Positions 8,391-61,679 of a DNA stretch of 64,000 bases are shown here, one piece after another. The DNA lies in NCBI GenBank assembly GCA_025355955.1, contig JANXYP010000346.1, forward strand, positions 3,945-67,944. Direction: 5' to 3'. How positions within the stretch are numbered: the first letter of the stretch is position 1; each line of letters begins with the position of its first letter. Below the pieces are notes generated by a model. It ran no database searches, was not told where the DNA came from, and saw nothing but the letters and a program-made list of their open reading frames with translations. A program made the position numbers and the translations under genes. The DNA is from Chloroflexota bacterium. GTDB taxonomy: Bacteria > Chloroflexota > Chloroflexia > QHBQ01.

Positions 8391-8416
8391 ATGGTAAATG
8401 TTGAATGGTAAATGGG
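8375..8416 (+). repeat. Heptamer-pair array GAATGGT-AAATGTT x3 at the TPR gene stop
   Basis: The real stop (8388-8390) is inside the array. TGA and TAA recur in the other frames. Confidence 0.85.
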
Positions 8417-20343: not shown

Positions 20344-20514
20344 TAGAACTCTCCTTCGGGACGCAGTGGGCGCGTTGGGTGCGATACATCCAATTGCAAT
20401 ACGTTGTTGGTGTAGGGGCGGATTGCGTCCGCCCTGGCTGCCCCTCACCCTAACCCTCTCCCATCTCGGGAGAGGGGATCTGCAGGGCGGGGTGCTGTTC
20501 ACAGCACCCGTGCG

Positions 20515-27879: not shown

Positions 27880-27923
27880 GAATGGTAAGGTGAATGGTAA
27901 ATGGTGAATGGTAAATGGTAAAT
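27880..27923 (+). repeat. Heptamer array GAATGGT/AAATGGT/AAGGTGA x6 after the permease 1 stop
   Basis: It starts 4 nt after TAG 27874-27876. TAA and TGA recur on the + strand. Confidence 0.85.
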
Positions 27924-27961
27924 GTAGGGGCGGGTTGCACTCGCGCCTTCTGGGGGTAACA

Positions 27962-47475: not shown

Positions 47476-49125
47476 ATGCCCGAAGTAACCGCCCCCATCA
47501 TCGCTGTCACCGTCTATACCGACCGCGCCCAGGTTACGCGGCGCGGCACCATCAGCCTGAGCGAAACGGGAACGCAGGAGCTTACCGTCAGCGGGCTGCC
47601 CACCAACATTGATGGCAATTCGCTGCGGGCCAATGGGCGGGGAACTGCCGCCGTCACCATCATGGGGGTGGAGAGCAAGGTGCGCTACTTCACCGACCCG
47701 CCCCGACTAGATGTGCGCGACTTGCAATTGCAATTGCAAACCTTGCAAGACCAGGCCAGCGAATTCGCCAACCAGAATGAGACGCTTGTCAAGCGGCTCG
47801 AAACCGTGCAGAAGATGGCGGAAGTGGCTGCCGACCGTTACGCCCGCAGCCTGGCGCAAGGCACCGTGCAGCTCGAAGCCGCCCAGCAATTGCTCGACTT
47901 TATCAGCGGGCAGACGCAGCAGGTGAAGCAGGAGCAGTTGAAGCTCACGCAGCAGCAGCGCGAAAACAAGAAGCAGCAAGAGGTGGTGCAGAGCCAGATC
48001 AACCAGCTAGCCTCGCCCCAGCAACGTCAGGATAATTTCGTCAGCGTGCCGGTGGAGGTGAGTAGCGCGGGCGACTTTGCGCTAGAGCTAACCTATGTGG
48101 TCTATGGCGCAAAGTGGCAACCACTTTACGACCTGCGAATCAGCAGCCAGCCTACCGCTGCACCGGCCCTGGTGCAGCCTGCCGCCAGCCCACCACCCAG
48201 CGCAGTGTTCAACGGCAAGCTCACCCTCGGCTATCTTGCCAGCCTCAGCCAGAACACCGGCGAGGACTGGAGCGCGGTCAATCTAACCCTCTCTACCGCC
48301 CGGCCCAGCCTCGGCACGTTGCCGCCCAGGCTCGACCCCATCTACCTCGATGTCTACTCCCCACCTCCACCGATGTATGCCGCTGCGCCGATGGCGGCTC
48401 CGGCAGGGATGGCGCGAAAGGCATCCGCCCTCAGCATGGCCGATGATGCAATCATCCCAGCGCCCCAGCAGGAAGCGACCATCGCCCAGGCCACGGTCAA
48501 CAGCAGCGGCGCAAGTGTCACCTTCAGCCTGCCCCGCCCCCTGGATGTGCCGTCCGACGGTCAGCCCCATCGCACCATGATCACCAGCCAGGACTACGAT
48601 TGCCGCCTTGACTACAGCAGCGTGCCGCGCCGTGCCAGCCTCGGCTACCTGCGAGCCACGATTACTAACAACAGCCCGCTCACCCTGCTGCCCGGCTCCG
48701 CCAACGTCTTCCGCGATGGCGAGTATATTGGCAACGCCAACCTGGAACTGGTCGCCCCTCAGCAGGAGTTCAAGCTGTTCCTCGGCCCCGACGAGCAGGT
48801 ACGCACTGAGCGCGCGCTGGCGGGTCGCGAGGTGGACAAAACCTTCATCGGCAGCACTCGCCGCAACTCGTATGCCTATGTTATCAAGCTGGAGAACCTC
48901 AAGTCCTATCCGCTGCGGCTGGTGGTGCAGGATCAGATTCCGGTCAGCCGTAGCGAACAGATCAAGGTCAAGCTGAACAATGTCCAGCCACCAGCGGCGG
49001 AGGTTGACCACCTCGGCATCATCCGCTGGGAGCTAACCCTGCCCACCGGCGGCAAGCTGCAGCTACGCTACGACTACACCGTGGAGAGCAACCGCGACAC
49101 CCGCATCAGCGGCCTTGAGGATTAG
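47476..49125 (+). CDS. DUF4139/DUF4140 (MuiA-like) family protein
   Basis: 549 aa. AGGAGG RBS. N-terminal beta-rich block (VTVYTDRAQVTRRG.ISL..G.QELTVSGLP), a Gln-rich coiled coil and a C-terminal beta domain. The architecture is recalled from the TIGR02231-type family; the function is unknown. Confidence 0.6.
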   Translation: MPEVTAPIIAVTVYTDRAQVTRRGTISLSETGTQELTVSGLPTNIDGNSLRANGRGTAAVTIMGVESKVRYFTDPPRLDVRDLQLQLQTLQDQASEFANQNETLVKRLETVQKMAEVAADRYARSLAQGTVQLEAAQQLLDFISGQTQQVKQEQLKLTQQQRENKKQQEVVQSQINQLASPQQRQDNFVSVPVEVSSAGDFALELTYVVYGAKWQPLYDLRISSQPTAAPALVQPAASPPPSAVFNGKLTLGYLASLSQNTGEDWSAVNLTLSTARPSLGTLPPRLDPIYLDVYSPPPPMYAAAPMAAPAGMARKASALSMADDAIIPAPQQEATIAQATVNSSGASVTFSLPRPLDVPSDGQPHRTMITSQDYDCRLDYSSVPRRASLGYLRATITNNSPLTLLPGSANVFRDGEYIGNANLELVAPQQEFKLFLGPDEQVRTERALAGREVDKTFIGSTRRNSYAYVIKLENLKSYPLRLVVQDQIPVSRSEQIKVKLNNVQPPAAEVDHLGIIRWELTLPTGGKLQLRYDYTVESNRDTRISGLED

Positions 49126-49143
49126 CAGGGTTAAGGCTGATCT

Positions 49144-49225
49144 GTAGGGGCGAACCTTTGTTCGCCCTGCCCGCTGATTAACTCGCGTTAACCCGATCTG
49201 TAGGGGCGAACCGTTGTTCGCCCTG
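49144..49225. repeat. Pair of REP hairpins (GTAGGGGCGAACC.TTGTTCGCCCTG) spaced 56 bp apart
   Basis: Copies lie at 49144-49169 and 49200-49225, both preceded by GATCT. They belong to a family with about 25 members in this window, listed in the findings. Confidence 0.85.
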
Positions 49226-49242
49226 CCGAAGGAGCATACAAC

Positions 49243-49683
49243 GTGCGATTGGTAATTCAGCGCGTAACCCAGGCATCAGTCACAGTCGAGGGTAAGGTGA
49301 TCGGGCGCATCGGCAAGGGGCTGGTGGTGCTGGTGGGGGTGGGCAATGGTGACGATGAGGCGAAGGCGGAAGCGCTGACCGCCAAGCTGGTCAACCTGCG
49401 TATCTTCGCCGATGCTGAAGGCAAAACCAACCTCGCCGCCCTGGAGGTGGGCGCGGAGATGCTGATCATCTCGCAGTTCACCCTCTATGCTGACACGCGC
49501 AAGGGTCGTCGCCCCAGCTTCATCGAGGCCGCCCCGCCACTGGTCGCCGCTCCACTGGTCGAGCAGTTTGTCGCAGCAGTGAAAGCCTACGGCCTGCGCG
49601 TCGCCACCGGCCAGTTCCAAACCGAGATGCTGGTCGAGATCCACAACGACGGACCCTTTACGATAGTGATGAACGATGAGTGA
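49243..49683 (+). CDS. dtd: D-aminoacyl-tRNA deacylase
   Basis: 146 aa. MRLVIQRV start, with the SQFTLYAD and NDGPFT motifs diagnostic of Dtd. GTG start. Confidence 0.92.
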   Translation: MRLVIQRVTQASVTVEGKVIGRIGKGLVVLVGVGNGDDEAKAEALTAKLVNLRIFADAEGKTNLAALEVGAEMLIISQFTLYADTRKGRRPSFIEAAPPLVAAPLVEQFVAAVKAYGLRVATGQFQTEMLVEIHNDGPFTIVMNDE

Positions 49684-50101
49684 CGAGCTAACCTGGCAAG
49701 CCGGAGTGAAGCAGACAGTGCAGCGTACCGTGCTGGTGGCACTGAGCGTGGGCATTGTGCTGCTGCTCCTGCTGCTGGCGAACCTGCCCACGCTGGTAGC
49801 CACGCTGCTCACCCTCGCCTACGCCCTCTATGTGCTGCTGCCTTACCTGCTGCCGGTGCGTTATCGGCTCAACGCGGCGGGGGTGCGCTGGGGTCAGGGG
49901 CTGGACAGCCATTTTCGCCCCTGGGACAGCTTCAAGGTCTATCGTCTGCAACCGGGTGGCATCGAACTGAGCGCCTACAGCCGTCGCGATGGGCGCGTGC
50001 CTACGCTCAACAACTATCGCGCCGTCTTCCTCCCCTACGGCAAGCTGCCCCCCACCGACCTCGAAGCCGCCGTCGCCGCCCATCTGCCGCTGGATGTGTG
50101 A
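49676..50101 (+). CDS. Small two-TM membrane protein, unknown function
   Basis: 141 aa. The ATG overlaps the dtd stop by 8 nt. Two adjacent hydrophobic helices are followed by a soluble tail of about 80 aa. Confidence 0.55.
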   Translation: MSDELTWQAGVKQTVQRTVLVALSVGIVLLLLLLANLPTLVATLLTLAYALYVLLPYLLPVRYRLNAAGVRWGQGLDSHFRPWDSFKVYRLQPGGIELSAYSRRDGRVPTLNNYRAVFLPYGKLPPTDLEAAVAAHLPLDV

Positions 50102-50105
50102 GGGC

Positions 50106-50140
50106 AGAAGGTAGAAGGCGGAAGGTAGAATGTGGATGGG
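50106..50140 (+). repeat. Heptamer array AGAAGGT/AGAAGGC/GGAAGGT/AGAATGT x5 after the 49676..50101 stop
   Basis: It starts 5 nt after the TGA. TAG recurs on the + strand. Confidence 0.8.
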
Positions 50141-50172
50141 AAATGAGCGAATGTTACTTATCAAACTTGCCA

Positions 50173-50201
50173 CTCATGCCTCATACCTCTGCCTCATACC
50201 T
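50173..50201. repeat. Heptamer array CTCATGC/CTCATAC x4
   Basis: Same family as the 2131 array. It lies upstream of the P1-P7 promoter. Confidence 0.8.
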
Positions 50202-50251
50202 GTCTTCTTGACATAATCTGGGCAATTTTGCCCAAATTGGGGGTAAGGTAC

Positions 50252-50280
50252 TTGACGTAACGTTGCGATGGTAATATACT
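50252..50280 (+). promoter_or_regulatory. Sigma-70-type promoter of the P1-P7 operon (TTGACG-17-TATACT)
   Basis: TTGACG at 50252-50257, a 17-nt spacer and TATACT at 50275-50280. A 6-2-6 inverted repeat GGGCAATTTTGCCC (50219-50232) just upstream could be an operator. Confidence 0.55.
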
Positions 50281-50338
50281 ATACGCAAGGCAGACCATGT
50301 TCTAATCTGTTGGGTCCGCAATAGCACGAGGTGGGGCA

Positions 50339-50656
50339 ATGTTTAGCAAACAACCAGGCAAGCAGCAGGCGGAAGAGCCAGTCACCGCCGCCGATATTGC
50401 GGCGGCTGACAAGCTGGCGGCCAGCGTGGGTAAGTGGGGAATGAGCGCCCCTGCGTTGCTGCTGCTGGCGATCGGCAAGCCGCTCGGCTTCTTCGGGGCG
50501 CAACTGCTCTACGTTGGTGGGCCGCTGCTGCAGATGCTGGGGGCGGCCACTGGTAAGCCGCTCGCGGCGCGGGCCGACAGCCTCGCCCGCCTGCTGGAGA
50601 ACCCCGCCGCACTCGAACAACTGACCACTCGCATCGAGCAGAGGGAGAAGCGATAG
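50339..50656 (+). CDS. Operon gene P1: small membrane protein, unknown function
   Basis: 105 aa. GAGGTG RBS. The start lies about 55 nt downstream of a TTGACG-17-TATACT promoter. One or two hydrophobic segments (MSAPALLLLAIGKPLGFFGAQLLYVGGPLL). Confidence 0.65.
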   Translation: MFSKQPGKQQAEEPVTAADIAAADKLAASVGKWGMSAPALLLLAIGKPLGFFGAQLLYVGGPLLQMLGAATGKPLAARADSLARLLENPAALEQLTTRIEQREKR

Positions 50657-51484
50657 ATGAAGAGCCGGGGTAATGAGTTTTTTACCTTCGTTTACGGCAA
50701 CAGCGAGATTGTCATCCTCGCTCTGCTCGGCATCTTCCTGCTCGTCTTCCTGCTGCTGCTCAGTGCATCGCAGCGGGGTAAGCTATCAACCTTGCGTGAG
50801 TTGCTCCCCTACCAGCGCATCAAAGGTGCAATTGGCCGCGCCGCCGAGCTGGGCAAGGGGGTACACTTCAGCCCCGGCTCCGGCGACCTGGCGCAAGGGC
50901 TGCACCCGGTCGAGACGCTGGCGGGGCTGACCATCGGTGAGGCGGTAGCGCGACAGGCGGCGCAGAGCGGGGCGCGGCTGGTGACTACCACCAACGGGCC
51001 GGTTACCTATGCGGTGGCCGACAACGTGGCCTCACGCGGCTACGCCAACATGGGGCGACTGGCCGATTACAACGCCGAGGATACCCGCTTTGTCACCCAG
51101 AGCCTGAGCGATCGCCTGCCTTATCTGGTGGGCGCTGCCGATGTGGTCGAACACGAGGACACTGAGGTGAACATCGCTATTGGCTACTTTGGGGCAGAGT
51201 ACCTGCTGCTGGGTGAGACTGCGGCGCGCAGCGGCACTAACCAGATCGTGGGCAGCAGCGAGTCCAGCGCAATCCCGCTGATGCTTACCACCGCCGACCC
51301 TGAGCAGGTGCTAATCGGTGAGGAGATTTTTGCAGGCGGCGCGTACCTGCAGCAACGTGCCAGCCATGTCGCCTCGTTGATCGCCCAGGATGCGCTGCGT
51401 ATCGTGCTGATCATCGCCATCATCGTCGGGGCGCTGCTGGCGAACCTGGAACCCGACTGGCTGAAGTTTATCTTTTCGCGTTAA
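50657..51484 (+). CDS. Operon gene P2: bitopic membrane protein (TM helices at both ends, soluble core of about 200 aa), unknown function
   Basis: 275 aa. The start codon directly abuts the P1 stop. TM helices IVILALLGIFLLVFLLLLSA and IVLIIAIIVGALLANL. Confidence 0.7.
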   Translation: MKSRGNEFFTFVYGNSEIVILALLGIFLLVFLLLLSASQRGKLSTLRELLPYQRIKGAIGRAAELGKGVHFSPGSGDLAQGLHPVETLAGLTIGEAVARQAAQSGARLVTTTNGPVTYAVADNVASRGYANMGRLADYNAEDTRFVTQSLSDRLPYLVGAADVVEHEDTEVNIAIGYFGAEYLLLGETAARSGTNQIVGSSESSAIPLMLTTADPEQVLIGEEIFAGGAYLQQRASHVASLIAQDALRIVLIIAIIVGALLANLEPDWLKFIFSR

Positions 51485-51496
51485 GGAGACCAGCCC

Positions 51497-52174
51497 ATGC
51501 GCCGTCGCCCTGGCTTCGACTTCGGCTATACCGCCACCTCGGTGATCATTTACGTCACCGCGTTGATCGTGTTCGCCACTTTCTTCATCACCGCGCAGGG
51601 GCCAACCACCGACAACCCGCAAGGCTCGATCCCCTATCGCGCAGGCATCTACCTGCCTGCCCTCGCCGCGCTGCTGACCGGCTTTGCCCTGTTGCTCGGC
51701 CTTGCCAACCTGGTGCGGGTTCACGTTGGGCGCATCCAGCGGCAGGAGCGCAACTGGCCTTACAGCGGGGCGCTGCTAGCTAGCGCGGGGGTTACGATTG
51801 TGGTTGGCGCGATAGTCGGTGGCAGCGGGCCGAACAGCGCGGGCGCGACCTGGATTTTCAACAATGTATACCAGCCGCTAGCCAGCACCTTCTACAGCCT
51901 GCTCGCCTTCTTCATCGCCGCCGCCGCCTTCCGCGCCCTGCGCGCCCGCACAGTAGAGATGACCATTCTGACGGTCGTTGCGCTGATCGTCATTCTGGGC
52001 CAAGCGCCAGTCTTCCAACTGGATCAACTAAACTGGTTGGCGGCGCTCAAGGATTGGATCGTGCAGTATCCCGCGCTGGCGGCCATCCGCGGCATCGCTT
52101 TGGGCGCGTCGCTGGGTATCATTGCCACCAGCGCCCGTCTGGTACTGGGCATTGACCGCCAGTATTTGAGTTGA
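51497..52174 (+). CDS. Operon gene P3: polytopic (about 6 TM) membrane protein, unknown function
   Basis: 225 aa, 12 bp after P2. The stop lies inside a GTTGNAN heptamer array. Confidence 0.7.
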   Translation: MRRRPGFDFGYTATSVIIYVTALIVFATFFITAQGPTTDNPQGSIPYRAGIYLPALAALLTGFALLLGLANLVRVHVGRIQRQERNWPYSGALLASAGVTIVVGAIVGGSGPNSAGATWIFNNVYQPLASTFYSLLAFFIAAAAFRALRARTVEMTILTVVALIVILGQAPVFQLDQLNWLAALKDWIVQYPALAAIRGIALGASLGIIATSARLVLGIDRQYLS

Positions 52175-52211
52175 ACGTTGAATGTTGTATGTTGTATGTT
52201 GTATGTTGAAG
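52170..52211 (+). repeat. Heptamer array GTTGAAC/GTTGAAT/GTTGTAT x6 containing the P3 stop
   Basis: TGAs at 52172 (the real stop), 52179 and 52207 fall in three different frames. Confidence 0.9.
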
Positions 52212-52257
52212 TGGTTGCTCATAGGGGTGAGCCGTTGTTCGCCTAATAGCGCATCCA

Positions 52258-52285
52258 CAATCTAAAATCTAAAATCTAAAATCAT
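52258..52285 (+). repeat. Heptamer array AATCTAA x3.5 ending 2 nt before the P4 ATG
   Basis: A TAA in every unit closes all three frames immediately upstream of the start codon at 52287. Confidence 0.9.
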
Positions 52286-52286
52286 T

Positions 52287-55022
52287 ATGGCTGAAGACTA
52301 CCGCGAAGAAGAGATTATCGTGCCGTTGCGCTGCCCCAACTGTGGCGGGCTTAACCCGCCGGAGAACAAGGTGTGCCAGCTATGCGGCTTCCGACTGGTC
52401 GGCGCGACCCCAGTGTCGCCACCGGGGGTGGAGATGCGTAGCGGCAGCGAGCCGCCTGATGTGCCTGCAACGCCATCTCCGGCGATAGTCGAGTCGCTTG
52501 CGCCCGTCCCGCCGCCCGATGTTTCACGCCCCTCGACTCCGTCGGCGCGTGGCTCTGGCCTGGCCGCACGGCTGGGCGGGGCGAGTAGCGCTGCACCGCC
52601 ACCCGCTGAGTGGTTGGGCGACTTGCGCCGCAACATTGGTGGCGATGCTCCTACCCTGATCAACCCACCAACGGCATCCCAACCTGCCCCACCGCCCGAA
52701 CCGGCGCGGTCGGCCAGCGGGTTGTGGGCAGCACCAACCGCGCAGGGTGATGAGCAGCTAGGCTACGTTGCGCCACCTACCCCTACTATCAGTCCTTACC
52801 GCCGCGACGATCTGCCCGGACCCACCAATAAGCCGGTGGATTGGCTGGCAAGCCTGCGCGCTTCCAGCAGCCTCAGCCCCGAAACGGAACCGGACGCAGC
52901 AGCCGACCAGCCGGAGGACGCGCCGATTGCCATTCCCGACTGGCTGCGTAACCTGCGTGCGAGTGGCGCACCGGCAGCGGGTGTAGCCGCTGAGGAAGAT
53001 GAGGGGGTTGATGCGCCGCCCTGGTTGACCGACGAGGTCGCTCCCGATACCGGCCCGCTCGATCGGGCCGAGTCCGTTACTGCGCCAGCTAAGGACCTGC
53101 CACCCTGGCTGCGCGACGGCACCGATACGCTCGACCCGAGCCGCGTAGACCAGTTCGCGGCCACGCAGAATGCTGCTGAGGGGCAGGTGGCTAGCATCCC
53201 ACCCTGGAAACAGCAGCCGCCTGAACCGGCCCCGCCTGCGCGCCCCGACTTCAGTGACTGGTTCACCAACCGCGCCGCCACGAATGTCGCACCAGCGGAG
53301 CAAGCGCTACCCTCGACCACAACCATCGCCCGCAGTGGCAGCTTCCTGGAAGACAGCGATGCACCCGCCTGGTTGCGCGAGGTGGCGGCGGCTGCACCTC
53401 CGCCGATGCCCCAGGCGATGTCTGATCCGCCCCCCACACCTGCTGCTGAACCCCTCGCCGTCGAAGAGGGGCAATCGCCAGAGGTAGCTGAACCCGATGC
53501 AGTAGATGAGGCCATCGCTTCCGCCGCGCCGTCCGCCCGGCTGCAGCCGCCAGTCAGCGATGGCGAAACTGAGGTCGGGGTCGCCCCAGAAGCGGACGAA
53601 GCGGCTACCGATCAAGCAGACGAACTCGTCAACGATCAAGCGGAAGCAGAGGTTGACGCGATCGCCCCGCAAACGGACACCGGCTCTGCGCCGGAAGCCG
53701 CGACTACCATCCCCCGCCCCACCACCAGCGGTGGGCTGGTCAGCGGTGAAGATCTACCACCCTGGCTGCGGGTAGTCGGCGGTGAGAGCGCGGCCAGCGG
53801 CGCAACCCTGACGGTGGCGGATACTACCGTCGCGCCTCCTACCACGACCAGCTTCTTCCCCGGCGACACCGCAGAGGATACCACTGTTCCCGACTGGCTG
53901 CGGGGGATTGGCCGTGACCCGCAGGATGTCACGCCCGCCAGCGCCGAGGCGTTGACCGCATCCGTGGCCGAGCCAGTGCAGCGCATCCAGCGTGTTATGA
54001 GCGTGCGTCAGCCCCGCCCCGGCGCGGCGGAGGCGCTGGCCGCCCTGGTTGCCACTCCCAGCGCCAGCACGCGCACCGCGCCGCTCGAACTCAAGGGGGA
54101 GCATAATGTTCCCGCCAGCCTGATGCGTTGGCTGCTCAGTGAGCGCGGCATCTACCTACTTACCGCGCTGGTGATGATTGCGGTAGTGCTGGCCGACCGC
54201 GTATGGGGAGTGCAGCCGCTGGTGGTTACATCGCCCCCACCAAACGCGCAGGTAGATAGCTTCTATAAGACAATCAATAATCTCGAAACCCAGCCAGGTG
54301 CGCCGGTGCTGGTGGCCTACGATTGGGATGCCAATCGTCAGGCGGAGATGGAGCCACTCGCCCGCGCCGTCACCTGTCACCTGGGCGCGATCAAAGCCCG
54401 CTTTGCCACTGTCAGCCTAGCCCCCACCGGCCCGGCCTTCGCCCAGCGGATCGCGGAGGCAACCGTGGATCGCACCAACCCCTGCACCTCCCGCTATCAG
54501 TATGGCAGCGATTACGTCAACCTCGGCTACAGTGCGGGCGGCGACTTCGCGCTACGCAGTATGGTCGGCAATATCGCCACCGTGTTCAGCACTGATTATG
54601 TGAACGGCAGGCCGCTGTTTGGCGCAGGTGGAGTGGCCGCGCTGAAGAATGTCAATCGCCTCAGCGATTTCAAGCTGATCATCGTGCTGGAAGGGGATGA
54701 GAGTACCGCTCGCTCCTGGATTGAGCAAGTTGCCAGCCAGCCCAACACCCCACCCCTCCTGCTTGGTGAACCCGCTGCGCTCGACCCCAGCCTGCAACCG
54801 TATCTCACCATCGCTGCGCCCACCCGTTTCTTCGGCAAGGTTGCGGGCCTGAGCGATGTGGCCCGCTATCAATACGACCTGACCAGCAAAGGGTTGAACA
54901 TGGCGCGCACTGACCTGTACTTCAGCCTCAACACGCTATCGTTCGCCGCCCTGCTCGTTGCCCTGCTAATCATTATCGGCAATATCGTGTTTATTGCCCG
55001 GCTGGTCAACCGCCGCAAGTAA
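52287..55022 (+). CDS. Operon gene P4: zinc-ribbon protein with a disordered Pro-rich region of about 600 aa carrying ten PxWL motifs, then a TM helix, a folded domain of about 260 aa and a second TM helix
   Basis: 911 aa. Zinc ribbon CPNCGG-x11-CQLCG. The motif Trp residues are at positions 109, 186, 219, 246, 274, 307, 325, 362, 493 and 537 (for example IPDWLRNL, APPWLTDE, LPPWLRDG, LPPWLRVV, VPDWLRGI). TM helices are at about residues 621-636 and at the C-terminus. Confidence 0.75.
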   Translation: MAEDYREEEIIVPLRCPNCGGLNPPENKVCQLCGFRLVGATPVSPPGVEMRSGSEPPDVPATPSPAIVESLAPVPPPDVSRPSTPSARGSGLAARLGGASSAAPPPAEWLGDLRRNIGGDAPTLINPPTASQPAPPPEPARSASGLWAAPTAQGDEQLGYVAPPTPTISPYRRDDLPGPTNKPVDWLASLRASSSLSPETEPDAAADQPEDAPIAIPDWLRNLRASGAPAAGVAAEEDEGVDAPPWLTDEVAPDTGPLDRAESVTAPAKDLPPWLRDGTDTLDPSRVDQFAATQNAAEGQVASIPPWKQQPPEPAPPARPDFSDWFTNRAATNVAPAEQALPSTTTIARSGSFLEDSDAPAWLREVAAAAPPPMPQAMSDPPPTPAAEPLAVEEGQSPEVAEPDAVDEAIASAAPSARLQPPVSDGETEVGVAPEADEAATDQADELVNDQAEAEVDAIAPQTDTGSAPEAATTIPRPTTSGGLVSGEDLPPWLRVVGGESAASGATLTVADTTVAPPTTTSFFPGDTAEDTTVPDWLRGIGRDPQDVTPASAEALTASVAEPVQRIQRVMSVRQPRPGAAEALAALVATPSASTRTAPLELKGEHNVPASLMRWLLSERGIYLLTALVMIAVVLADRVWGVQPLVVTSPPPNAQVDSFYKTINNLETQPGAPVLVAYDWDANRQAEMEPLARAVTCHLGAIKARFATVSLAPTGPAFAQRIAEATVDRTNPCTSRYQYGSDYVNLGYSAGGDFALRSMVGNIATVFSTDYVNGRPLFGAGGVAALKNVNRLSDFKLIIVLEGDESTARSWIEQVASQPNTPPLLLGEPAALDPSLQPYLTIAAPTRFFGKVAGLSDVARYQYDLTSKGLNMARTDLYFSLNTLSFAALLVALLIIIGNIVFIARLVNRRK

Positions 55023-55112
55023 CAATTCCCCCTCTCCCCGTGGGAGAGGTTGGGTGAGGGTGCGGGCGGGATGAATCCTACCCCTACCAGAATGGTTCTA
55101 AGGGAGCCTTAG

Positions 55113-55751
55113 ATGGACCTGTCACTAATCGGCACCATAATCGCAGTCATTCTCACCCTGATGGTCTACAGCTACCTGATCGGCGATAATCCGCTGTATC
55201 GGCTGGCGCAGAACATCTTTGTGGGGGTCAGCATCGGCTACATCACCCTGGTAGTGATTTACAACGTGATTGTGCCGTTCGTAGGGCGCACGCTCCAGGA
55301 TCGGCCCTGGCTGGAGCGGGTGTTGCCGTTGCTGGCTCTACTGCTGGGAGTGCTACTCTGGTTCAAGGCGGCCCGCCCGCGCAACGTCTTCTCCAATGCG
55401 GTGCTGGCGATTATCGTCACCACCGGCGCAGCGTTGGGCCTGGGCGGCACCCTGGTCGGCACCCTGTTGCCCCAGATGCAGGCGACGATGCTGACATTTA
55501 GCTCCGACATCGGTTCGATCATCGGCAACCTCGTCATCATCGTCGGGGTGATCGTCAGCCTGGGTTATTTCTACTTCACCGCCAAGCCGGACGGCACCCG
55601 CACCATGACCGCTGGCTATGTGGCGACCGCAGGCCGCTGGTTCATGATGGTGGCCTTCGGCACCCTGTTCGGCTTCGCGGTAACATCGTTCTTCGCTCTG
55701 CTGGCGGATCGCATCAAGTTCTTGATCAGTCCGGGGTCATTATTATTGTAG
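55113..55751 (+). CDS. Operon gene P5: polytopic (about 6 TM) membrane protein, unknown function
   Basis: 212 aa and strongly hydrophobic throughout. Its TAG stop is followed immediately by 10 GGTAGAT heptamers. Confidence 0.7.
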   Translation: MDLSLIGTIIAVILTLMVYSYLIGDNPLYRLAQNIFVGVSIGYITLVVIYNVIVPFVGRTLQDRPWLERVLPLLALLLGVLLWFKAARPRNVFSNAVLAIIVTTGAALGLGGTLVGTLLPQMQATMLTFSSDIGSIIGNLVIIVGVIVSLGYFYFTAKPDGTRTMTAGYVATAGRWFMMVAFGTLFGFAVTSFFALLADRIKFLISPGSLLL

Positions 55752-55753
55752 AC

Positions 55754-55823
55754 GGTGTATGGTAGATGGTAGATGGTGGATGGTAGATGGTAGATGGTAG
55801 ATGGTAGATGGTAGATGGTAGAT
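55754..55823 (+). repeat. Heptamer array GGTAGAT x10 directly after the P5 stop
   Basis: This is the longest array in the window. It has a TAG in every unit, and two variant units (GGTGTAT, GGTGGAT). Confidence 0.92.
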
Positions 55824-55889
55824 TATGAAGATTGGCGAGATAAACTTATATCTGTTCCGTTGCCATAATGGCAACGGAAGGGAGAACAA

Positions 55890-58181
55890 ATGGCAGACGA
55901 GCAGGCAACGCCAAAGCACAAGGTAGAGTCGATCCTCAGCGCCGATGTGGGCAGCCTGTGGACACGGGTCGCGCTGGTTGATGTGGTCAGCGGCGAGTAT
56001 CGCTTCGTTGCTCGCGCCGTCGCGCCGACCAGCGCGGAGTTGCCCTTCGGCGACATTACGGTGGGGCTATACAACGCCATGGCCGAGCTTGAGCGCCTCA
56101 GCGGGCGGCAGATTGTCGAGGAGGGCCATCTAATCATCCCGCAGTTGCCCAATGGCAACGGGGTGGATGCCTTCATCGCCGCCAGTTCCGCCGCACCCGC
56201 AATGCGCCTTGTGCTGCTAGCCCTCAACCGCGACATTACCGCCCGCAGCGCCCTGCACGCGGCGGAGAGTACCTACACCAACGTGCTAGATCTACTTACC
56301 GTGGACGAGCATCTGGCCGAGGGCGAGAAGCCGCTGCCGGAGGGCGAGTGGCTGAGTCGGCAGGTGCAGCGGCTGGTCGCCTTGCAGCCCGATGTAGCGT
56401 TGATTGTCGGTGGGGTGGATGGTGGGCCGGTCGTGCCGCTGCTCAAGCTGGCCGACGTAGTGGCGCAGACGGCGCGGCAACGGGTGGTGCAGGAGCAGAG
56501 CATCAATGCCACGCCCACCAAATTGCCAGTTATCTTTGCGGGCAATCAGAGCGCAAGGGGGCGAGTTGCCGAGAAGCTGGACGAGGCCACCGACCTGCGT
56601 CTAACCGAGAACGTGCGCCCCCGCCTCGATCGCGAACGCCTTGCCAGCGCTCAGGAGCAACTCGACAATCTCTACTTGCAGAAGCAACTGACGGCGGTGC
56701 CTGGCTATCGGCGGCTGGCTAGCTGGACCGAGAACATCATCCCCACTTCGCTAGCCGAGGGCATTGTCACCCGCTATATTGCCGCCCAGTACAACCGCGA
56801 TGTGCTGATCGCCGATGTGGGCGCGGCGAGTGTGGGCGGCTTCCTCACCAACGAGGCACCCAGCGGCGCAAGCCCCGCTGCGGGCGAACGCGGCTTCTAC
56901 CGCGTGGTCAAGGGTGATTTCGGCATGGCCTACGGCCTGCCCAACTTGCTACGCCAGGTGGGCGCGGCGGCGGTGCTGCGTTGGCTGCCATTCACCATGG
57001 CCGAGAGCGAACTGGTCGAGTGGGCGCTCAACCGATTGCTGCGCCCGCTCAGTCTGGCGGCGGAAGAGCGCGACCTACAGATCGAACACGCCTTCGCCCG
57101 CGAGGCGCTGCGTTACATCGCGGCGCGGATGCGCGAACAGGCCAACCCCGGCGCTCGGCCCGCCTACGACTTGCTGATTGGCAGTGGCGGCCTGCTGGCA
57201 AACGCGCCCAACCCGCAGATGGCGGCATTGTTGCTGCTCGATGGGCTGGAGCCGGAAGGTCTGCCTACCGGCTCGGTGGAACTGGCGCTTGACAGCACCA
57301 TGCTGCTGCCCCACATCGGCACGATGGCCGCCGCCAACCCCGCCGCTGCTGCCTACGTTTTTGACCGCGATAGCCTGCTCTGGCTCGGCACCGCGATTGT
57401 GCCGCTTGCGGCAGTGGCTAACCCGCTGCCTAACCAACCCGCCGTGACCGTTACAGTCGAGTACGCCGATGGCGGCGACCCGCTCAAGGTGGCGGTCGCC
57501 TATGGCGAACTGCGCGTGATCAGCCTGCGTCCCGACCAGCGGGCCAATCTGATTGTGCAGCCAGGGCGCGATTTCCGCGTCGGTGGCGGTGAACGCGGCA
57601 AGCTGGTGCGTACCATGGGCGAAGAGGTGAAGGGTGGCTACGTGGGGCTGATTATTGACGCACGTGGTCGCCCCCTACGCCTGCCCAGCGCGGAGGCCGC
57701 CCGCATCGCCACCCTGCGACGCTGGCAGGAAGCAATTGGCGCGGCTGCCATCGCGGAGGAACAAGCGGGCGCGCTACCCAGCTTGAGCAGCCAGCCCGAT
57801 CTGCCCCCAATTGCGACGCGCATGGCGCTCAGTCCGCTGCCAGAGAGCGAGGCGGAGGCTGCGCCCGAACCGTATGCCGATGATGAAATACCTATGGCGG
57901 AGGCGGAAGCTAGCGATATGGCGATCAGCCCCGCTAGCGATGACGAATACCTTCCGCCCTGGCTGATGGCCGACGCGCCGGATGAGGTTGCACCCTCGCC
58001 CGCTCCAGCCCCACCACAGGAAGAAGCCAACGCGACAATGCCGCCCTGGTTGCTGGCCGACCAGCCCGCCGACCAGCCCGCCGACCAGCCCACCGACCAG
58101 CCCACCACACGCCCCGGCGCGATGACTATTCCGCCCTGGCTGCTCGGCGCGGATGAAGACGAACCCAGCAACGTGAGGTAA
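55890..58181 (+). CDS. Operon gene P6: actin/Hsp70-fold (ASKHA) ATPase-like protein, GlmL/MutL-like N-terminus, acidic C-terminal tail with three PPWL motifs
   Basis: 763 aa. ILSADVGSLWTRVALVD fits the ASKHA phosphate-1 motif (DxGS..T[KR]). The following AVAPTS....DITVGLYNAMAELERLSG parallels the GlmL family layout as I recall it. The tail contains YLPPWLMAD, TMPPWLLAD and TIPPWLLGAD. Confidence 0.7.
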   Translation: MADEQATPKHKVESILSADVGSLWTRVALVDVVSGEYRFVARAVAPTSAELPFGDITVGLYNAMAELERLSGRQIVEEGHLIIPQLPNGNGVDAFIAASSAAPAMRLVLLALNRDITARSALHAAESTYTNVLDLLTVDEHLAEGEKPLPEGEWLSRQVQRLVALQPDVALIVGGVDGGPVVPLLKLADVVAQTARQRVVQEQSINATPTKLPVIFAGNQSARGRVAEKLDEATDLRLTENVRPRLDRERLASAQEQLDNLYLQKQLTAVPGYRRLASWTENIIPTSLAEGIVTRYIAAQYNRDVLIADVGAASVGGFLTNEAPSGASPAAGERGFYRVVKGDFGMAYGLPNLLRQVGAAAVLRWLPFTMAESELVEWALNRLLRPLSLAAEERDLQIEHAFAREALRYIAARMREQANPGARPAYDLLIGSGGLLANAPNPQMAALLLLDGLEPEGLPTGSVELALDSTMLLPHIGTMAAANPAAAAYVFDRDSLLWLGTAIVPLAAVANPLPNQPAVTVTVEYADGGDPLKVAVAYGELRVISLRPDQRANLIVQPGRDFRVGGGERGKLVRTMGEEVKGGYVGLIIDARGRPLRLPSAEAARIATLRRWQEAIGAAAIAEEQAGALPSLSSQPDLPPIATRMALSPLPESEAEAAPEPYADDEIPMAEAEASDMAISPASDDEYLPPWLMADAPDEVAPSPAPAPPQEEANATMPPWLLADQPADQPADQPTDQPTTRPGAMTIPPWLLGADEDEPSNVR

Positions 58182-58183
58182 CT

Positions 58184-59443
58184 ATGAGCTTCTATTACCC
58201 AACCAAGCAACCTTCGATTGCGATGACCACCCTGGTGCGCCTGGATCGGCGACTGCCGTTCGCTGGTGAGGTGACAGTGCGGCTGGGGGCGCGGGTCGAG
58301 CCGGACGATGTAGTGGCCCGCACTCTCATCCCCGGCAAGCCGATGGAGATTGACCTGACCGCCGCGCTGGGCGTAAACGCGAAGGCTGCCGCCAAATTGA
58401 TTCGGCGACGGCCAGGCGAACAGGTGCAGATGGGCGACACCATTGCGGGCAAGCGCAACCTGGGGGCGCGACAGGTGCGCGCCCCCGCCGCCGCCGTGTT
58501 CAGCAGCTACGATGATAAGGCTGGTCTGGCAACCCTGACCCCGATGGGCGAGATGTACGAGCTTGACGCGCACCTCAAGGGCATCGTGATGGAGGTGTTC
58601 GCCAACCAGGGGGTGAGCATCGAAACCCCCGCCGCGATTGTGCGTGGCATTTGGGGCATGGGTGGTGAGCGGCACGGTGTGCTGAAGCTGCTAGTAACTG
58701 GCAACGATGAGGAGCTTACCCCCGAACTGATTGACGCGAAGAGTACCTATGCGGTGCTGGTGGGTGGCTCGTTCGTTACTGCAGCGGCGCTACGCAACTG
58801 CGTCCAGAACCGCGTGCGCGGGGTGATCGTCGGCAGTATGCCCGCCGAGGAGTTGCGGGCCTTCCTGCTCGATGTCTATACCCCCGCTGCTTATATGGCG
58901 GGCGCATCGGCGGTAGACTGGCCGATGGGCAGGCTGGGCTGGCAGTTCCCGCCGCCGCCGCTTTTCCCCAGCCTGCTGCCTAGCGCTGCGCCAGAGAACA
59001 CCCCTACCGCGATGCTACTCAATCGCCAGGGCCGCTCCAGCGAGGCACCTTTCACCCTGATTGTAACCGAGGGCTTTGGGCGGATGCCGATGTCGGAACG
59101 GGCCTTCGAGTTGCTGGCCGCCGCCGACGGGCAGGAGGTAGCGATCAGTGGCACCACCCGGCTGCGCGGCGGCCTGGCCCGCCCCGAAGTGATCATCCCA
59201 CTGCCGCGCAGCAGCGTGCAGGGCCGCGACCTCACGGCCAGCCAACAAGCGCCCGCGATGCGGGTCGGCAGTCTCGCCCGCGTACTCAGCGGCAGCTACC
59301 TGGGGCGCATCGGCAAAGTCAGCGCGTTGCCACCCCGCCCTCAGCTACTGCCCAGCGGCATCCTCGCCCGCGCTGCCGAGCTTACCCTTAGCGATGGCAC
59401 CCACACCCTGCTGCCGCTGCTCGATGTCGAGGTGCTGGAATGA
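58184..59443 (+). CDS. Operon gene P7: soluble protein with an N-terminal barrel-sandwich-hybrid-like segment and a C-terminal KOW/SH3-like motif, unknown function
   Basis: 419 aa, starting 2 bp after the P6 stop. GEVTVRLGARVEPDDVVAR recalls lipoyl/hybrid-barrel motifs. MRVGSLARVLSGSYLGRIGKVSAL follows the KOW pattern G..V.V..G.Y.G..G.V. It ends with TGA TAG TGA TAA, followed by a strong terminator. Confidence 0.7.
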   Translation: MSFYYPTKQPSIAMTTLVRLDRRLPFAGEVTVRLGARVEPDDVVARTLIPGKPMEIDLTAALGVNAKAAAKLIRRRPGEQVQMGDTIAGKRNLGARQVRAPAAAVFSSYDDKAGLATLTPMGEMYELDAHLKGIVMEVFANQGVSIETPAAIVRGIWGMGGERHGVLKLLVTGNDEELTPELIDAKSTYAVLVGGSFVTAAALRNCVQNRVRGVIVGSMPAEELRAFLLDVYTPAAYMAGASAVDWPMGRLGWQFPPPPLFPSLLPSAAPENTPTAMLLNRQGRSSEAPFTLIVTEGFGRMPMSERAFELLAAADGQEVAISGTTRLRGGLARPEVIIPLPRSSVQGRDLTASQQAPAMRVGSLARVLSGSYLGRIGKVSALPPRPQLLPSGILARAAELTLSDGTHTLLPLLDVEVLE

Positions 59444-59468
59444 TAGTGATAAGTGATGAGTGATGAAT
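59441..59468 (+). repeat. Heptamer array TGATAGT/GATAAGT/GATGAGT/GATGAAT at the P7 stop
   Basis: In frame it reads TGA TAG TGA TAA. The other two frames each contain TGA TGA. Confidence 0.9.
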
Positions 59469-59480
59469 TGTGGTATAAAG

Positions 59481-59516
59481 ATGCGCCCGCCTCTTTCGAG
59501 GCGGGCGCATTGTTTT
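59481..59516 (+). terminator. Strong rho-independent terminator closing the P1-P7 operon
   Basis: A 13-bp stem ATGCGCCCGCCTC/GAGGCGGGCGCAT, loop TTTC, and tail TGTTTT. Confidence 0.75.
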
Positions 59517-59594
59517 GGGCTACGCTATTCGCTTTGCCCGTTCCCCTTACCCCAACCCTCTCCCACCAGGGGAGAGGGGGCGAAGGGATAGAGC

Positions 59595-61439
59595 CTACTT
59601 GTCGAACCAGTCGGGCTGGCTGTTGTTGACGTTCGGATCCTGATTGGGTACTGGCGCAGCGCTCAGGCCATCGGCGTGCATGATGTAGAGTTGCTGCTTG
59701 GTCAGTTGGCGCATATAGATGATGCGGGTGCCGTTGCTGTTGAAGGCCGGGTCCCAGTCATTGGTGGTGTTGTTGACGATCTTCTGCTTGTTGCTGCCGT
59801 CGACATTCACCGTGTAGATGTCGGCATTGGCGGGGTCGCCAGAGCGATAGACGATGATGCTGCCCTGCGGCGACCATCGTGGCTCTACGTCAGCGGTGCC
59901 GTCGGTGCCGCCGGTGATGTGCTTGACGTTGCTGCCGTCAGCGTTCATGGTGTAGAGGCTCTGGGTGCCGTCGCGGTTGGAGGAGAAAACGATTTGCTTG
60001 CCATCGGGCGACCAGTCGGCATCGGTGTCAATAAAGGAGTTCTCGGTCAGCCGCACCGGGTCGACTCCGGCAAGCGCCTCGGTAACGAAGATCTCACCAT
60101 CGGGGAAGCCATCGGCATCCACGCCAGTGAAGAGGATGCGGGTGCCATCCGGCGACCAGCGCGGCCTGAACTGCTTGGACGGGAAGCGTGAGTTAAGTTC
60201 GATTGGGTTGCTGCCGTCGGCGTTCATAATGTAGATGTGGTTGAGACCCCCCTTACGGTCGCTGACGAAAGCAACCTTGGTGCCATCTGGCGACCAGGCG
60301 GCCTGGGTGTTGTTGCTGGGATCATGGGTCAGGTTGCCTCGACTGCCGCCGTCCGACTTGATCGAGTAGATCTGCAGGTGGCTGGTGTCGGACATATCGG
60401 AGGTGTAGAGGATCTTGCCGCCAATCGGCTTGGGCATGGGCGTAGCGGTGGGCGCAATGCCGGGGGTGGTGGTGGGCGTGGTCCCACCGGGGGTGCTAGT
60501 TACCGGGATGGGCTGCTGCGGATTGTAGCGCCAATCGAAGTAGTGCTGGCCGATGTTGCCCATCTCCACCTGGAAACCCGCCGGGTTGCTGGGTACATAG
60601 GTGAGCACGCGCCGCTGGTAGGGTTGAATTAGGACCGCGACGTTGGCCGTGCCTGCGATCTTGACGTTAGCCCAGAACGGCTCGGCGATCGGGTAGCCGC
60701 TGGCGTAGAACCAGGGGTCGTTGAGCCGCTGCTGCACAAACTGGCCGTTGACGTAGACGGGGCCAACCTCGTTGAGGAAGTCCCACATCGCCTTGGGGAT
60801 GTTGTGCTGGGTAGTACCCTCATAGTGGACGAACTGGGTGCCAGGGACGTTCGCCTTGCTGGGGTCGTTGCCCACATCGCCCGCCCGATTGATGGTCTGG
60901 GTGGCGTATTGACCACTGCGGTCGCCGCTGGACAGGCTGGTTACTCCCTGGAAGCTGGCATAGGTGGGAGCGTTGGGGTCATTCACGTCGGAGGCGATGT
61001 CAATGTTGGCGGGGGTGCGCTGCACGAAGGTGTTGTCGCCGATCTGCATCCTGCCGGTGGTTAGCTCGACGGTGAGCAGGCCGTTGGTGACGAAGAAGGG
61101 GTTGTGGCGATCGCCGTTGGGGTTGTTGATCTCCATGCGGCTCTTGTCGAAATACTGCACCAGGCGCTTGCCAGTGCCATCAGGCGCATCGACGTATTGC
61201 TCGAACATGATGCGGGTCGGGCTGCCCTTGAGTGGCCCCCAGTACCACGAGCGGGAAACCACGCCCTGCTCTACCGGCAGGTCGGTGCGGTTCCAGGTAC
61301 TCTGAAAGTTGGGGTCGCCGAACTGCACGGTTTGCGCGCTGGCATGGTTGCCGAGCTGCGTCGCCACCAGCGACAGCACCAGGCCGAGCGCCACGAGCAG
61401 CATCAGCGCGACATTACTGCGATGAATATATTTGGACAT
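59595..61439 (-). CDS. Secreted protein with an unknown N-terminal domain and a C-terminal TolB-like (PD40/WD40-like) beta-propeller
   Basis: I call the start at ATG 61439 (MSKYIHRSNVALMLLVALGLVLSLVA, a signal sequence). PD40-type blades are present: WSPDGTKVAFVSDR...IYIMNADGSNP, WSPDGTRILF, WSPDGKQIVFSSNRDGTQSLYTMNADGSN and WSPQGSIIVY. The track N-terminus to 61664 is rejected. Confidence 0.75.
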   Translation of the reverse strand: MSKYIHRSNVALMLLVALGLVLSLVATQLGNHASAQTVQFGDPNFQSTWNRTDLPVEQGVVSRSWYWGPLKGSPTRIMFEQYVDAPDGTGKRLVQYFDKSRMEINNPNGDRHNPFFVTNGLLTVELTTGRMQIGDNTFVQRTPANIDIASDVNDPNAPTYASFQGVTSLSSGDRSGQYATQTINRAGDVGNDPSKANVPGTQFVHYEGTTQHNIPKAMWDFLNEVGPVYVNGQFVQQRLNDPWFYASGYPIAEPFWANVKIAGTANVAVLIQPYQRRVLTYVPSNPAGFQVEMGNIGQHYFDWRYNPQQPIPVTSTPGGTTPTTTPGIAPTATPMPKPIGGKILYTSDMSDTSHLQIYSIKSDGGSRGNLTHDPSNNTQAAWSPDGTKVAFVSDRKGGLNHIYIMNADGSNPIELNSRFPSKQFRPRWSPDGTRILFTGVDADGFPDGEIFVTEALAGVDPVRLTENSFIDTDADWSPDGKQIVFSSNRDGTQSLYTMNADGSNVKHITGGTDGTADVEPRWSPQGSIIVYRSGDPANADIYTVNVDGSNKQKIVNNTTNDWDPAFNSNGTRIIYMRQLTKQQLYIMHADGLSAAPVPNQDPNVNNSQPDWFDK

Positions 61440-61679
61440 AGATTGTTGCTCTCCTTCCAAAACTGTTGGCTTGGCCCCAGCGCCACGGATGGTTGCGCCG
61501 AGCCAGCGTGATCCTACACTATCTGCGTTGTTGCGGGCAGCTTGTGCAGCCGCCGGGGCGTTTGGCCCTCGCCCATATTGTAACGAATGACCGCAAGAAA
61601 GGTTACTCTGCCACATTTTGTGGCAATCCTGCTTCCCCATTTTCTGATAAGCTCCCTCCGCCATTTCGGGGGTTGGAGG

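Follow-up and report, generated by a model that had tools for sequence, protein, structure and literature searches.

A conserved bacterial and archaeal locus that combines a predicted ASKHA-fold ATPase with a four-protein membrane module

A 64-kb stretch of Chloroflexota DNA (the window) carries a row of uncharacterised genes, P1 to P7, which a preliminary description made from the sequence had put forward as an undescribed membrane-associated ATPase machine. Our computational analysis upholds this proposal with several refinements. The same gene families, joined by an eighth, P0, are found together in bacteria and archaea, and we are highly confident that they constitute one real, conserved functional system. 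The encoded proteins fall into a soluble module, consisting of P1, P6 and P7, in which P6 is predicted to be an ATPase of the ASKHA fold, and a membrane module, consisting of P2, P3, P4 and P5. We found no published description of this system and it looks like a real molecular machine.

Conservation and block-wise rearrangement of the locus

A P7 profile was used to scan one genome per species from about 185,000 species genomes, and relatives were found in 554 of them. The best 80 of the 554 genomes were taken for a census of loci, in which open reading frames (ORFs) were called mechanically and iterative hidden Markov models of each window protein were mapped. Genes of the membrane module were found beside P6 and P7 in 35 of the 80 loci; all of P1 to P7 are present in 21 of these, and the other 14 are cut by a contig end or by the end of the locus. 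The loci that pair P6 and P7 with membrane genes belong to Chloroflexota, unclassified bacteria, a metagenome-assembled genome (MAG) labelled Alphaproteobacteria, Bathyarchaeia and a Thermoproteota (Kor4) MAG, and the same pairing is seen in a MAG labelled Thermococci in which the locus is cut by the contig end. The full-set loci that were recovered are from MAGs or other metagenome assemblies, and the labels of P6 homologues include Ktedonobacteraceae and Anaerolineae. The order P1-P2-P3-P4-P5-P6-P7 is repeated in other Chloroflexota, in which P6 is 30-51% identical to that of the window, and in most loci outside this phylum the order is P1-P6-P7-P2-P3-P4-P5. The order changes only as two blocks, namely, a soluble block, [P0]-P1-P6-P7, and a membrane block, P2-P3-P4-P5, and in L065 the two blocks lie in divergent orientation. 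Adjacent genes often have abutting or overlapping start and stop codons, as in L004, L005 and L006. The synteny of P4, P6 and P7 homologues, on which the preliminary description had made its proposal depend, thus extends far beyond the phylum, and the profile searches on which it also depended led to no characterised pathway, the only matches being DUF6754 in P2 and the MutL/GlmL domain in P6.

The Bathyarchaeia loci L070 and L079 contain one P1-P6-P7 block and two P2-P5 membrane blocks. The two membrane sets within one bathyarchaeal genome are only 27-39% identical, and when bacterial and bathyarchaeal sets are compared the identity is 55-59% for P6, 46% for P2, 39% for P3, 35% for P4 and 36% for P5. 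Because of these identities we regard the membrane modules as old paralogues that accompany one strongly constrained ATPase module, and the value for P6 between Bathyarchaeia and bacteria points to strong constraint together with transfer between the domains.

The seven genes described earlier as an operon are real but an eighth conserved member, P0, had been overlooked. Homologues of P0 are directly 5' of P1 in the distant bacterial loci L068, L083, L085, L005 and L006, with E-values against the window protein of 9e-08 (L068), 1.6e-05 (L085), 4e-04 (L005) and 1.4e-03 (L083), and these distant homologues match one another at 1e-11 to 1e-15. The gene is also present in the close relatives L007 and L010. 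P0 is predicted to have an N-terminal hairpin of two transmembrane (TM) segments, with both ends inside, followed by a cytoplasmic beta-rich domain of about 80 amino acids (aa), and a Pfam search with it gave no match apart from a weak hint of bPH_6 in one relative (E 0.055). These comparisons suggest that P0 is an eighth, accessory member that co-occurs with the others across phyla. Since the conserved P0 sits just 5' of the promoter-like site that was thought to open the operon, 49676 is probably where the functional unit begins, however the genes are transcribed. In the archaeal loci L065, L070, L078, L079 and L080 a family of 4-TM proteins of about 140 aa adjoins the cluster in either orientation, sometimes in two to three copies; it is unrelated to P0 and may be its counterpart.

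The membrane set is not adjacent in the remaining loci of the census. P1-P6-P7 was found without it in 5 of the 80 loci, once as a tandem duplicate, which is the Clostridia locus L085 with two tandem P1-P6-P7 blocks, P0, and no membrane block within 7-10 kb. Four loci have a variant in which a 2-TM ORF of about 270 aa without a Pfam match lies between P6 and P7 and P1 to P5 are not nearby (L069, L071 and L075 in Ignavibacteriaceae and L067 in Zixibacteria); in L071 and L075 the variant adjoins an apparent Tol-Pal cluster, TolQ and TolB being confirmed by Pfam in L071 only. One further locus, L023, has P6-P7 on a contig too short to judge. In about 35 of the 80 loci P7 stands alone (Herpetosiphon, Chloroflexaceae, WOR-3 and Armatimonadota), and 8 of these have at most about 1 kb of upstream sequence, which is too little to judge them by. 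These solo P7 paralogues, without P6 or membrane genes, include L029-L034 (Herpetosiphon spp.), L042-L053 (Chloroflexaceae) and L057, L063 and L066 (WOR-3). Their neighbours are unrelated and include RF-1, AccA and Era; in Herpetosiphon they are a glycogen debranching enzyme and a hybrid histidine kinase, and in Chloroflexaceae the next gene codes for a response-regulator/Pro-rich/Roadblock-like protein and is followed by a gene for a 7-TM protein. A search for divergent partners beside solo P7 in all four groups yielded none at E<=1 with filters off. P7 may have a second, independent role.

The metabolic genes that adjoin the cluster might hint at a substrate; they are lineage-specific and not conserved from one lineage to another. 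In L087 P7 is directly followed by a gene for a lipoate/biotin protein ligase (11330-12178), two aminotransferases together with DUF483 proteins flank the cluster in Bathyarchaeia (L070, 6715-8055 and 15143-16309), and an S-Me-THD (DUF917) hydantoinase-associated protein adjoins it in L086 (11135-12277).

Searches with P0, P1, P3, P5 and the conserved core of P4 (P4C), including distant archaeal and bacterial members, against Pfam, NCBIfam and the sequences in PDB gave nothing above threshold, and the best sub-threshold Pfam matches, DUF2306 (E 0.01) and ABC TMD0 (E 0.054), were in one P3 homologue. Six of the eight proteins (P0, P1, P3, the P4 core, P5 and P7) belong to no Pfam family and no member of the system has a solved homologue at the sequence level. 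Paralogy among the components was not supported by profile-profile comparison, which gave probabilities of 0.2-7% for P2 with P4C, P3 with P5, P2 with P3 and P6 with P7; a kinship of P2 and P4C, seen by eye in the order of their motifs, was dropped after this comparison. None of 150 DUF6754 representatives was found to be a Rosetta-stone fusion with P0, P1, P3, P4, P6 or P7, and one weak, low-complexity-like match to P5 among them (E 1.6e-4) was discounted. There were no matches to PADLOC defence models or PHROG phage models, and by tblastn P7 was absent from plasmids and phages and P2 from plasmids; with all of these searches negative, an origin as a defence system or mobile element was rejected. 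In the literature that was searched there was no mention of DUF6754 or of this P6 subfamily and nothing relevant on PF13941, TIGR01319 or GlmL/ASKHA.

Predicted architecture of the two modules

Topologies were predicted from simple hydropathy and from counts of lysine and arginine (K/R). P2, which had been described as a bitopic protein with a core of about 200 aa, indeed has a TM segment, an alpha/beta domain of about 200 aa and a second TM segment, and it is a member of DUF6754 (PF20539; E 5e-46, 157 bits against a gathering cut-off of 27). Five acidic residues, E64, E181, E222, E223 and D245, are invariant. DUF6754 contains 1540 clusters at 50% identity (E<=1e-3), and about 45% of the top 150 representatives have long, variable N-terminal extensions. 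Two sampled short extensions open with a hydrophobic, signal-peptide-like segment, and among ten extensions scanned against Pfam there was one PQQ_2 propeller and one set of HEAT repeats. The N-terminus of P2 is placed outside and its domain in the cytoplasm because of the K/R bias and because the relatives have signal-peptide-like N-termini and variable ectodomains. The earlier estimate of about six TM helices each for P3 and P5 agrees with hydropathy. P3 has six, with both termini inside and 10-12 K and R residues inside versus 0-4 outside. P5 has about six, with N26, G38, F153, G174 and G183 invariant and Q121 present in at least 90% of the sequences.

P4 had been described as a zinc-ribbon scaffold. 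The ribbon, the Pro-rich disorder and the TM-domain-TM part were all found, but the spacer of the ribbon is x10 and not x11, and the scaffold occurs only in Chloroflexota; what is conserved is the C-terminal part, P4C, which has a TM segment, an outward-facing alpha/beta domain of about 235 aa and a second TM segment, with an invariant Asn-Ile in TM2. Its outward orientation is deduced from the K/R bias and from the cytoplasmic N-terminal extension. In other phyla and in archaea P4 is only about 280 aa and lacks the extension. The extension, which is cytoplasmic, consists of a zinc ribbon, C16xxC19-x10-C30xxC33, with weak Pfam matches (0.003-0.08), and about 580 aa of Pro-rich disorder with about ten xP[PD]WL(R/x) motifs (aa 100-545, window positions 52600-54000). 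These motifs are common to most full-length Chloroflexota P4 proteins, most of which also have the extension with two or four CxxC. The disordered tail of P6 likewise has three PPWL motifs (aa 688-755, positions 57950-58150), which are found only in the closest relatives of the window. Judging from these motifs, we take the P4 extension and the tail of P6 to be a probable lineage-specific tether or regulatory scaffold. The tail of P6 also has a 12-nt tandem repeat, GCCGACCAGCCC, in four copies, that codes for ADQP repeats.

P6 matches the Pfam MutL domain (PF13941) over aa 15-493 with an E-value of 1.3e-71 and 242 bits. Its AlphaFold2 model, with a mean predicted local distance difference test score (pLDDT) of 89.6, adopts the ASKHA fold on which the preliminary description had also relied. 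The best Foldseek matches of this model are N-methylhydantoinase, acetone and acetophenone carboxylase, and caprolactamase (9h03, 5svc_B, 5l9w and 6yra; E 4e-11 to 2e-7), which align over about 660 columns with TM-scores of only 0.2-0.3 and 10-14% identity. Lower in the list are Hsp70-like proteins, sugar kinases, FtsA, PilM and the diol-dehydratase reactivase DdrA, with FtsA and PilM appearing first at rank 16 and below (E about 1e-6). The conserved residues of the nucleotide motifs are D19, G21, D309, G311 and G433-434. P6 also has a C-terminal beta domain, at aa 497-616 approximately, with an invariant DARGRP motif that is specific to this subfamily. Based on the model, P6 is most probably an ASKHA-fold ATPase of the GlmL/hydantoinase-A branch and not of the actin type. 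Thus, of what had been claimed for P6, the fold and the GlmL-type domain stand, but the placement in the actin/Hsp70 branch does not.

Databases name homologues of P6 'glutamate mutase L', the accessory protein of coenzyme-B12-dependent glutamate mutase (GlmL/MutL; PF13941, NF040745, TIGR01319), with which P6 shares the full-length MutL domain and the ASKHA nucleotide motifs. However, P6 scores below all the curated cut-offs, with 111 versus 475 bits for NF040745 (GlmL), 82 versus 600 for NF040744 and 69 versus 204 for TIGR01319; it has the additional beta domain with DARGRP and in the loci examined it is never beside glmS- or glmE-like genes, its neighbours being P7, P1 and the membrane proteins. 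Among the cluster proteins there is no match to a mutase or cobalamin-binding Pfam family, whereas a GlmL/MutL accessory system would be encoded along with B12-dependent mutase subunits (glmS/glmE, oraS/oraE or kamD/kamE). With the structures of the ATP-hydrolysing hydantoinase-A-type subunits of hydantoinases, oxoprolinases, acetone/acetophenone carboxylases and caprolactamase the P6 model shares a similar overall domain organisation, but unlike the HyuA-HyuB systems the cluster proteins have no Hydantoinase_B Pfam match, the fold of P7 is unrelated, and the partners are again P7, P1 and membrane proteins. L088 (10001-12772) codes for a MutL-domain protein of 923 aa that stands alone, without any partner gene, on a contig with further genes for Por_Secre_tail (type IX secretion) proteins, and therefore PF13941 proteins occur in quite different contexts.

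P7 was modelled with a pLDDT of 83.4 as a split barrel-sandwich hybrid, a small beta-barrel, an alpha/beta domain with the motif TLIVTEGFG, and a C-terminal KOW/SH3-like barrel, the last in agreement with the KOW-like C-terminus noticed earlier. Foldseek gave matches at the level of domains only (KOW domains of NusG, Spt5 and eS4, BesA, and BCCP), and the P7 profile matched an E2 lipoyl domain (1.8e-4) and the Spt5 KOW domain (2e-3) in PDB. Among 49 P7 sequences there is no invariant Lys, Cys or His and no near-invariant Lys. Since none of these residues is conserved, P7 is neither a biotin/lipoyl carrier nor an Fe-S protein; the carrier role was rejected even though the barrel-sandwich hybrid fold is present and a lipoate-protein ligase is beside P7 in one locus. 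P1, which had been described as a small membrane protein, does have a hydrophobic or amphipathic central segment, but a hydropathy scan of the family found no canonical TM helix. The family has 33 distinct sequences across bacteria and archaea, adjoins P6 outside Chloroflexota, and shows in its alignment the conserved motif PAIxxLExxKPLSFxGSQ...P.L followed by a helix. Judging from these sequences, P1, which goes together with P6 and P7, is unlikely to be an integral membrane protein.

Proposed function and alternatives

We propose, tentatively and with rather less than even confidence, that the system is an ATP-driven transporter or translocase at the cytoplasmic membrane, with an ASKHA ATPase instead of an ABC ATPase. 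Complex formation, ATP hydrolysis, the coupling path and transport are all read here from the anatomy of the system. The block 49676-59516 would code for a conserved multi-subunit machine whose cytoplasmic energising module consists of P6, a translationally coupled P7 and the small P1, and whose membrane module consists of the 6-TM proteins P3 and P5 together with P2, with its domain in the cytoplasm, and P4, with its core facing outward; P0 would be an accessory 2-TM anchor in some lineages. P6 would bind and hydrolyse ATP, the resulting change of conformation would be relayed by P7 and P1 to the DUF6754 domain of P2 in the cytoplasm, P3 and P5 would provide the route across the membrane, and the outward domain of P4, along with the variable ectodomains fused to P2 in relatives, would handle a substrate or partner on the outside. 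A transporter or translocase is favoured by the architecture and modularity of the system, by the variable ectodomains and by its occurrence in organisms with unrelated envelopes. The membrane module adds up to 16 TM segments (6+6+2+2) and exposes a globular domain on either side of the membrane; within or beside its TM segments lie the invariant polar residues N280 of P4 and N26 of P5, as well as Q121 of P5, which is highly conserved. Since the system is present in archaea and in several bacterial phyla, its job is likely to be at the cytoplasmic membrane itself.

The closest functional analogy would be with the ABC and energy-coupling factor (ECF) transporters, whereas the closest homology, which concerns P6 only, is with GlmL and hydantoinase A. 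Like ABC/ECF transporters, the system has two proteins of about six TM segments, an outward globular domain and a cytoplasmic ATPase, and the single ATPase module beside two membrane modules in Bathyarchaeia may be likened to transporters with a shared energising module. It differs from them in that P6 is of the ASKHA fold, no cluster protein matches ABC_tran, and P7, P1 and P2 are extra obligatory partners. There is also some likeness to Rnf/Nqr, since some P7 homologues have a precomputed match to RnfC_N (PF13375) and since two 6-TM subunits of about 210 aa with a bitopic outward-domain subunit resemble RnfA/E/G. However, P3 and P5 do not match Rnf-Nqr (PF02508), there is no invariant Cys in P7, P3 or P5, no flavin-attachment motif was seen, and the top Foldseek matches of P7 include neither NqrA nor RnfC. 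Without conserved Cys or family matches, an Rnf/Nqr-like redox pump was rejected.

Several observations weigh against a transporter. P3, P5 and P4C show no detectable similarity to a known transporter family in Pfam, NCBIfam or PDB sequences, and a word-indexed search for homologues of P4C gave no match. Chloroflexia have a P6 in which the second phosphate motif is partly degenerate (DVGAASVG as compared to DIGGATTD), P6 is structurally nearest to soluble metabolic enzymes and cofactor-reactivating chaperones, and we are aware of no transporter that is driven by an ASKHA ATPase. P1-P6-P7 occurs without an adjacent membrane module, and P7 is alone in about 35 of the 80 genomes, which means that the soluble proteins may have a job of their own. 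The gene neighbourhoods give no clue to a substrate, as they differ between lineages.

Some of the same observations would be accounted for if the system were a membrane-tethered, ATP-dependent enzyme or chaperone, with P6 as a cofactor-exchange switch of the GlmL/DdrA type or a phosphorylating subunit of the HyuA type, P7 as its partner, and P2 to P5 as the client enzyme or anchor. The structures closest to P6 are those of the hydantoinase type, with the diol-dehydratase reactivase also in the list, P6 carries the MutL/GlmL domain, the five P1-P6-P7 loci, one of them a tandem duplicate, have no membrane genes nearby, the bathyarchaeal cluster adjoins aminotransferases and an S-Me-THD (DUF917) protein, and the invariant acidic residues of P2 could form an active or metal site. 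However, the cluster has no HyuB-like partner and no Pfam match for B12 binding or a mutase, the invariant columns of P7, P3 and P5 are without Cys, His and Lys, P6 is far below the GlmL and Or-4 equivalog cut-offs, and the metabolic neighbours are not conserved between lineages. The pairing with four membrane proteins in 35 of the 80 genomes, one of them with an outward domain, is also hard to fit to a purely cytoplasmic reaction, and we consider an enzyme or chaperone, the main alternative, unlikely.

Even less likely, in our judgement, is a cytoskeletal, envelope-biogenesis or surface-filament platform, in which P6 would polymerise or act as a scaffold like FtsA, PilM or MreB, with P2 to P5 as its membrane platform and the ectodomain of P4 working on the envelope. 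An ASKHA protein linked to bitopic membrane proteins is reminiscent of PilM-PilN-PilO and FtsA, both PilM and FtsA (E about 1e-6) are among the structural matches of P6, the bitopic partners have globular domains in the manner of PilN/PilO or MreC, and P4 of Chloroflexota has a long, multivalent, disordered scaffold. In addition, the solo P7 of Chloroflexaceae adjoins the response-regulator/Roadblock-like protein, and in one P1-P6-P7 locus a lipoate-protein ligase and then a DUF4388 protein follow; Roadblock-like and DUF4388 domains are linked to the regulation of polarity and motility. This reading is weakened because P6 belongs with the hydantoinase-A/GlmL branch and not with the actin/Hsp70 branch, PilM and FtsA ranking below hydantoinase-type proteins, Hsp70-type proteins and sugar kinases. 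The cluster has no PilN or PilO Pfam match, and among the neighbours scanned no pilin or secretion-ATPase gene was seen and no pilin, secretin, secretion-ATPase, peptidoglycan or S-layer gene was consistently linked. Furthermore, the P4 scaffold region is lineage-specific, and the carriers, which include archaea, have very different envelopes (Bathyarchaeia, Thermoproteota, Chloroflexota and other bacterial phyla), which argues against an envelope-specific role. Finally, the lack of functional annotation and the promoter-like sites inside the block might be taken to mean that there is no system and that the genes are chance neighbours in this genome; this is hardly credible because the same seven or eight families occur together in dozens of species genomes, archaeal as well as bacterial, where start and stop codons overlap and gene order is permuted in blocks.

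If the eight proteins are one machine, then it would be a widely distributed membrane system without a described counterpart. We consider it doubtful that an ATP-driven transporter of this kind is the first member of a new class of primary active transporters or translocases shared by Archaea and Bacteria, in which P6 with the coupling subunits P7 and P1 drives P2 to P5 and exchangeable paralogous membrane modules set the substrate specificity. An ASKHA ATPase working with polytopic membrane proteins would be a new mode of energising a membrane process alongside the ABC, P-type, rotary and AAA+ modes, and DUF6754 would gain its first function, as would a large subfamily that annotation pipelines currently misname 'glutamate mutase L'. 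The carriers, namely, Chloroflexota, Bathyarchaeia and unclassified or candidate-phylum bacteria such as Eisenbacteria, are mostly uncultured, and because they are abundant environmental lineages the function may bear on their ecology.

Layout of the locus and its surroundings

The features of the locus are given in Table 1. The seven ORFs are at the coordinates given earlier and all on the plus strand, and the reported spacings of 0 nt for P1/P2, 12 nt for P2/P3 and 2 nt for P6/P7 were reproduced. P0 overlaps the stop codon of the preceding dtd gene by 8 nt. The promoter-like site had been proposed as the start of the operon and is the top-scoring sigma-70-like site of the region, in a scan that relied on consensus match only and gave 6 sites as compared to 2.2 expected; weaker promoter-like sites are at 52254-52282, ahead of P4, and at the start of P5. 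The proposed terminator was missed by the region scan, yet it is present in the sequence, and its hairpin has a folding free energy (dG) of -36.3 kcal/mol with z = -6.4 against shuffles. The G+C content is about 60-66% across the block with no compositional break, and an Rfam search of 49000-60000 gave no match to an RNA family.

Table 1. Genes and putative regulatory sites of the locus, with positions in the 64-kb window
Feature	Positions	Strand	Description
P0	49676-50101	+	141 aa, 2 TM; outside the span of the preliminary description
Promoter-like TTGACG-17-TATACT	50252-50280	+	sigma-70-like consensus match 10/12, in the 237-nt P0-P1 gap
P1	50339-50656	+	105 aa
P2	50657-51484	+	275 aa, DUF6754
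P3	51497-52174	+	225 aa, 6 TM
P4	52287-55022	+	911 aa; N-terminal extension 52287-54143, conserved core P4C 54144-55022
P5	55113-55751	+	212 aa, about 6 TM
P6	55890-58181	+	763 aa, predicted ASKHA-fold ATPase
P7	58184-59443	+	419 aa, soluble, four domains
Terminator-like hairpin	59481-59516	+	13-bp perfect stem (59481-59510), 4-nt loop, then UUGUUUUG

The three larger gaps contain the heptamer arrays and hairpins that had been noticed in them. The P3-P4 gap has arrays of GTTGAAT (5.9 copies) and AATCTAA (3.6 copies), the P4-P5 gap has the hairpin CTCTCCCC-GTGGGAGAG, and the P5-P6 gap has GTAGATG (10.9 copies). At 55840-55885, directly 5' of the ribosome-binding site of P6, there is a 10-bp hairpin, TTCCGTTGCC-ATAA-TGGCAACGGAA, which might act in processing or in translational control of the ATPase gene. 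The whole window contains 16 tandem arrays of 7-nt units in 3.6-10.9 copies with many different units, for example, at 1731-1765, 8375-8415, 27881-27924, 52170-52210 and 55748-55823, and those that were inspected are intergenic. In the close relative L007, in which P7 is 93% identical, the equivalent gaps have arrays that differ in unit and length or have none. Because the arrays occur across the window and differ in the close relative, they were rejected as operon-specific regulatory elements; they are a fast-evolving habit of the genome and not part of the system. Filamentous cyanobacteria have short heptamers repeated in tandem, of which these arrays in a Chloroflexia genome are reminiscent. 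The palindrome CTCTCCC-N(3-5)-GGGAGAG, which resembles repetitive extragenic palindromes, occurs in four copies, at 5423-5441, 20456-20474, 55032-55048 and 59558-59576; two of these are at the cluster, where one lies between P4 and P5 and the other just past the terminator.

The closest public sequences are Chloroflexia MAGs, with P7 93% identical. Upstream of the cluster are genes for a DUF4139/DUF4140 protein (47476-49125, plus strand) and dtd, which codes for D-Tyr-tRNA deacylase (49243-49683). Downstream and on the opposite strand are genes for a PD40 beta-propeller protein (59595-61664), an HTH_20 regulator (61680-62297) and an SLH-domain protein (62673-63989, minus strand), and the pair of PD40 and HTH_20 genes is also kept downstream in the close relatives L007 and L010. 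A Fic/DOC-family protein is encoded elsewhere in the window at 42601-43899 on the minus strand.

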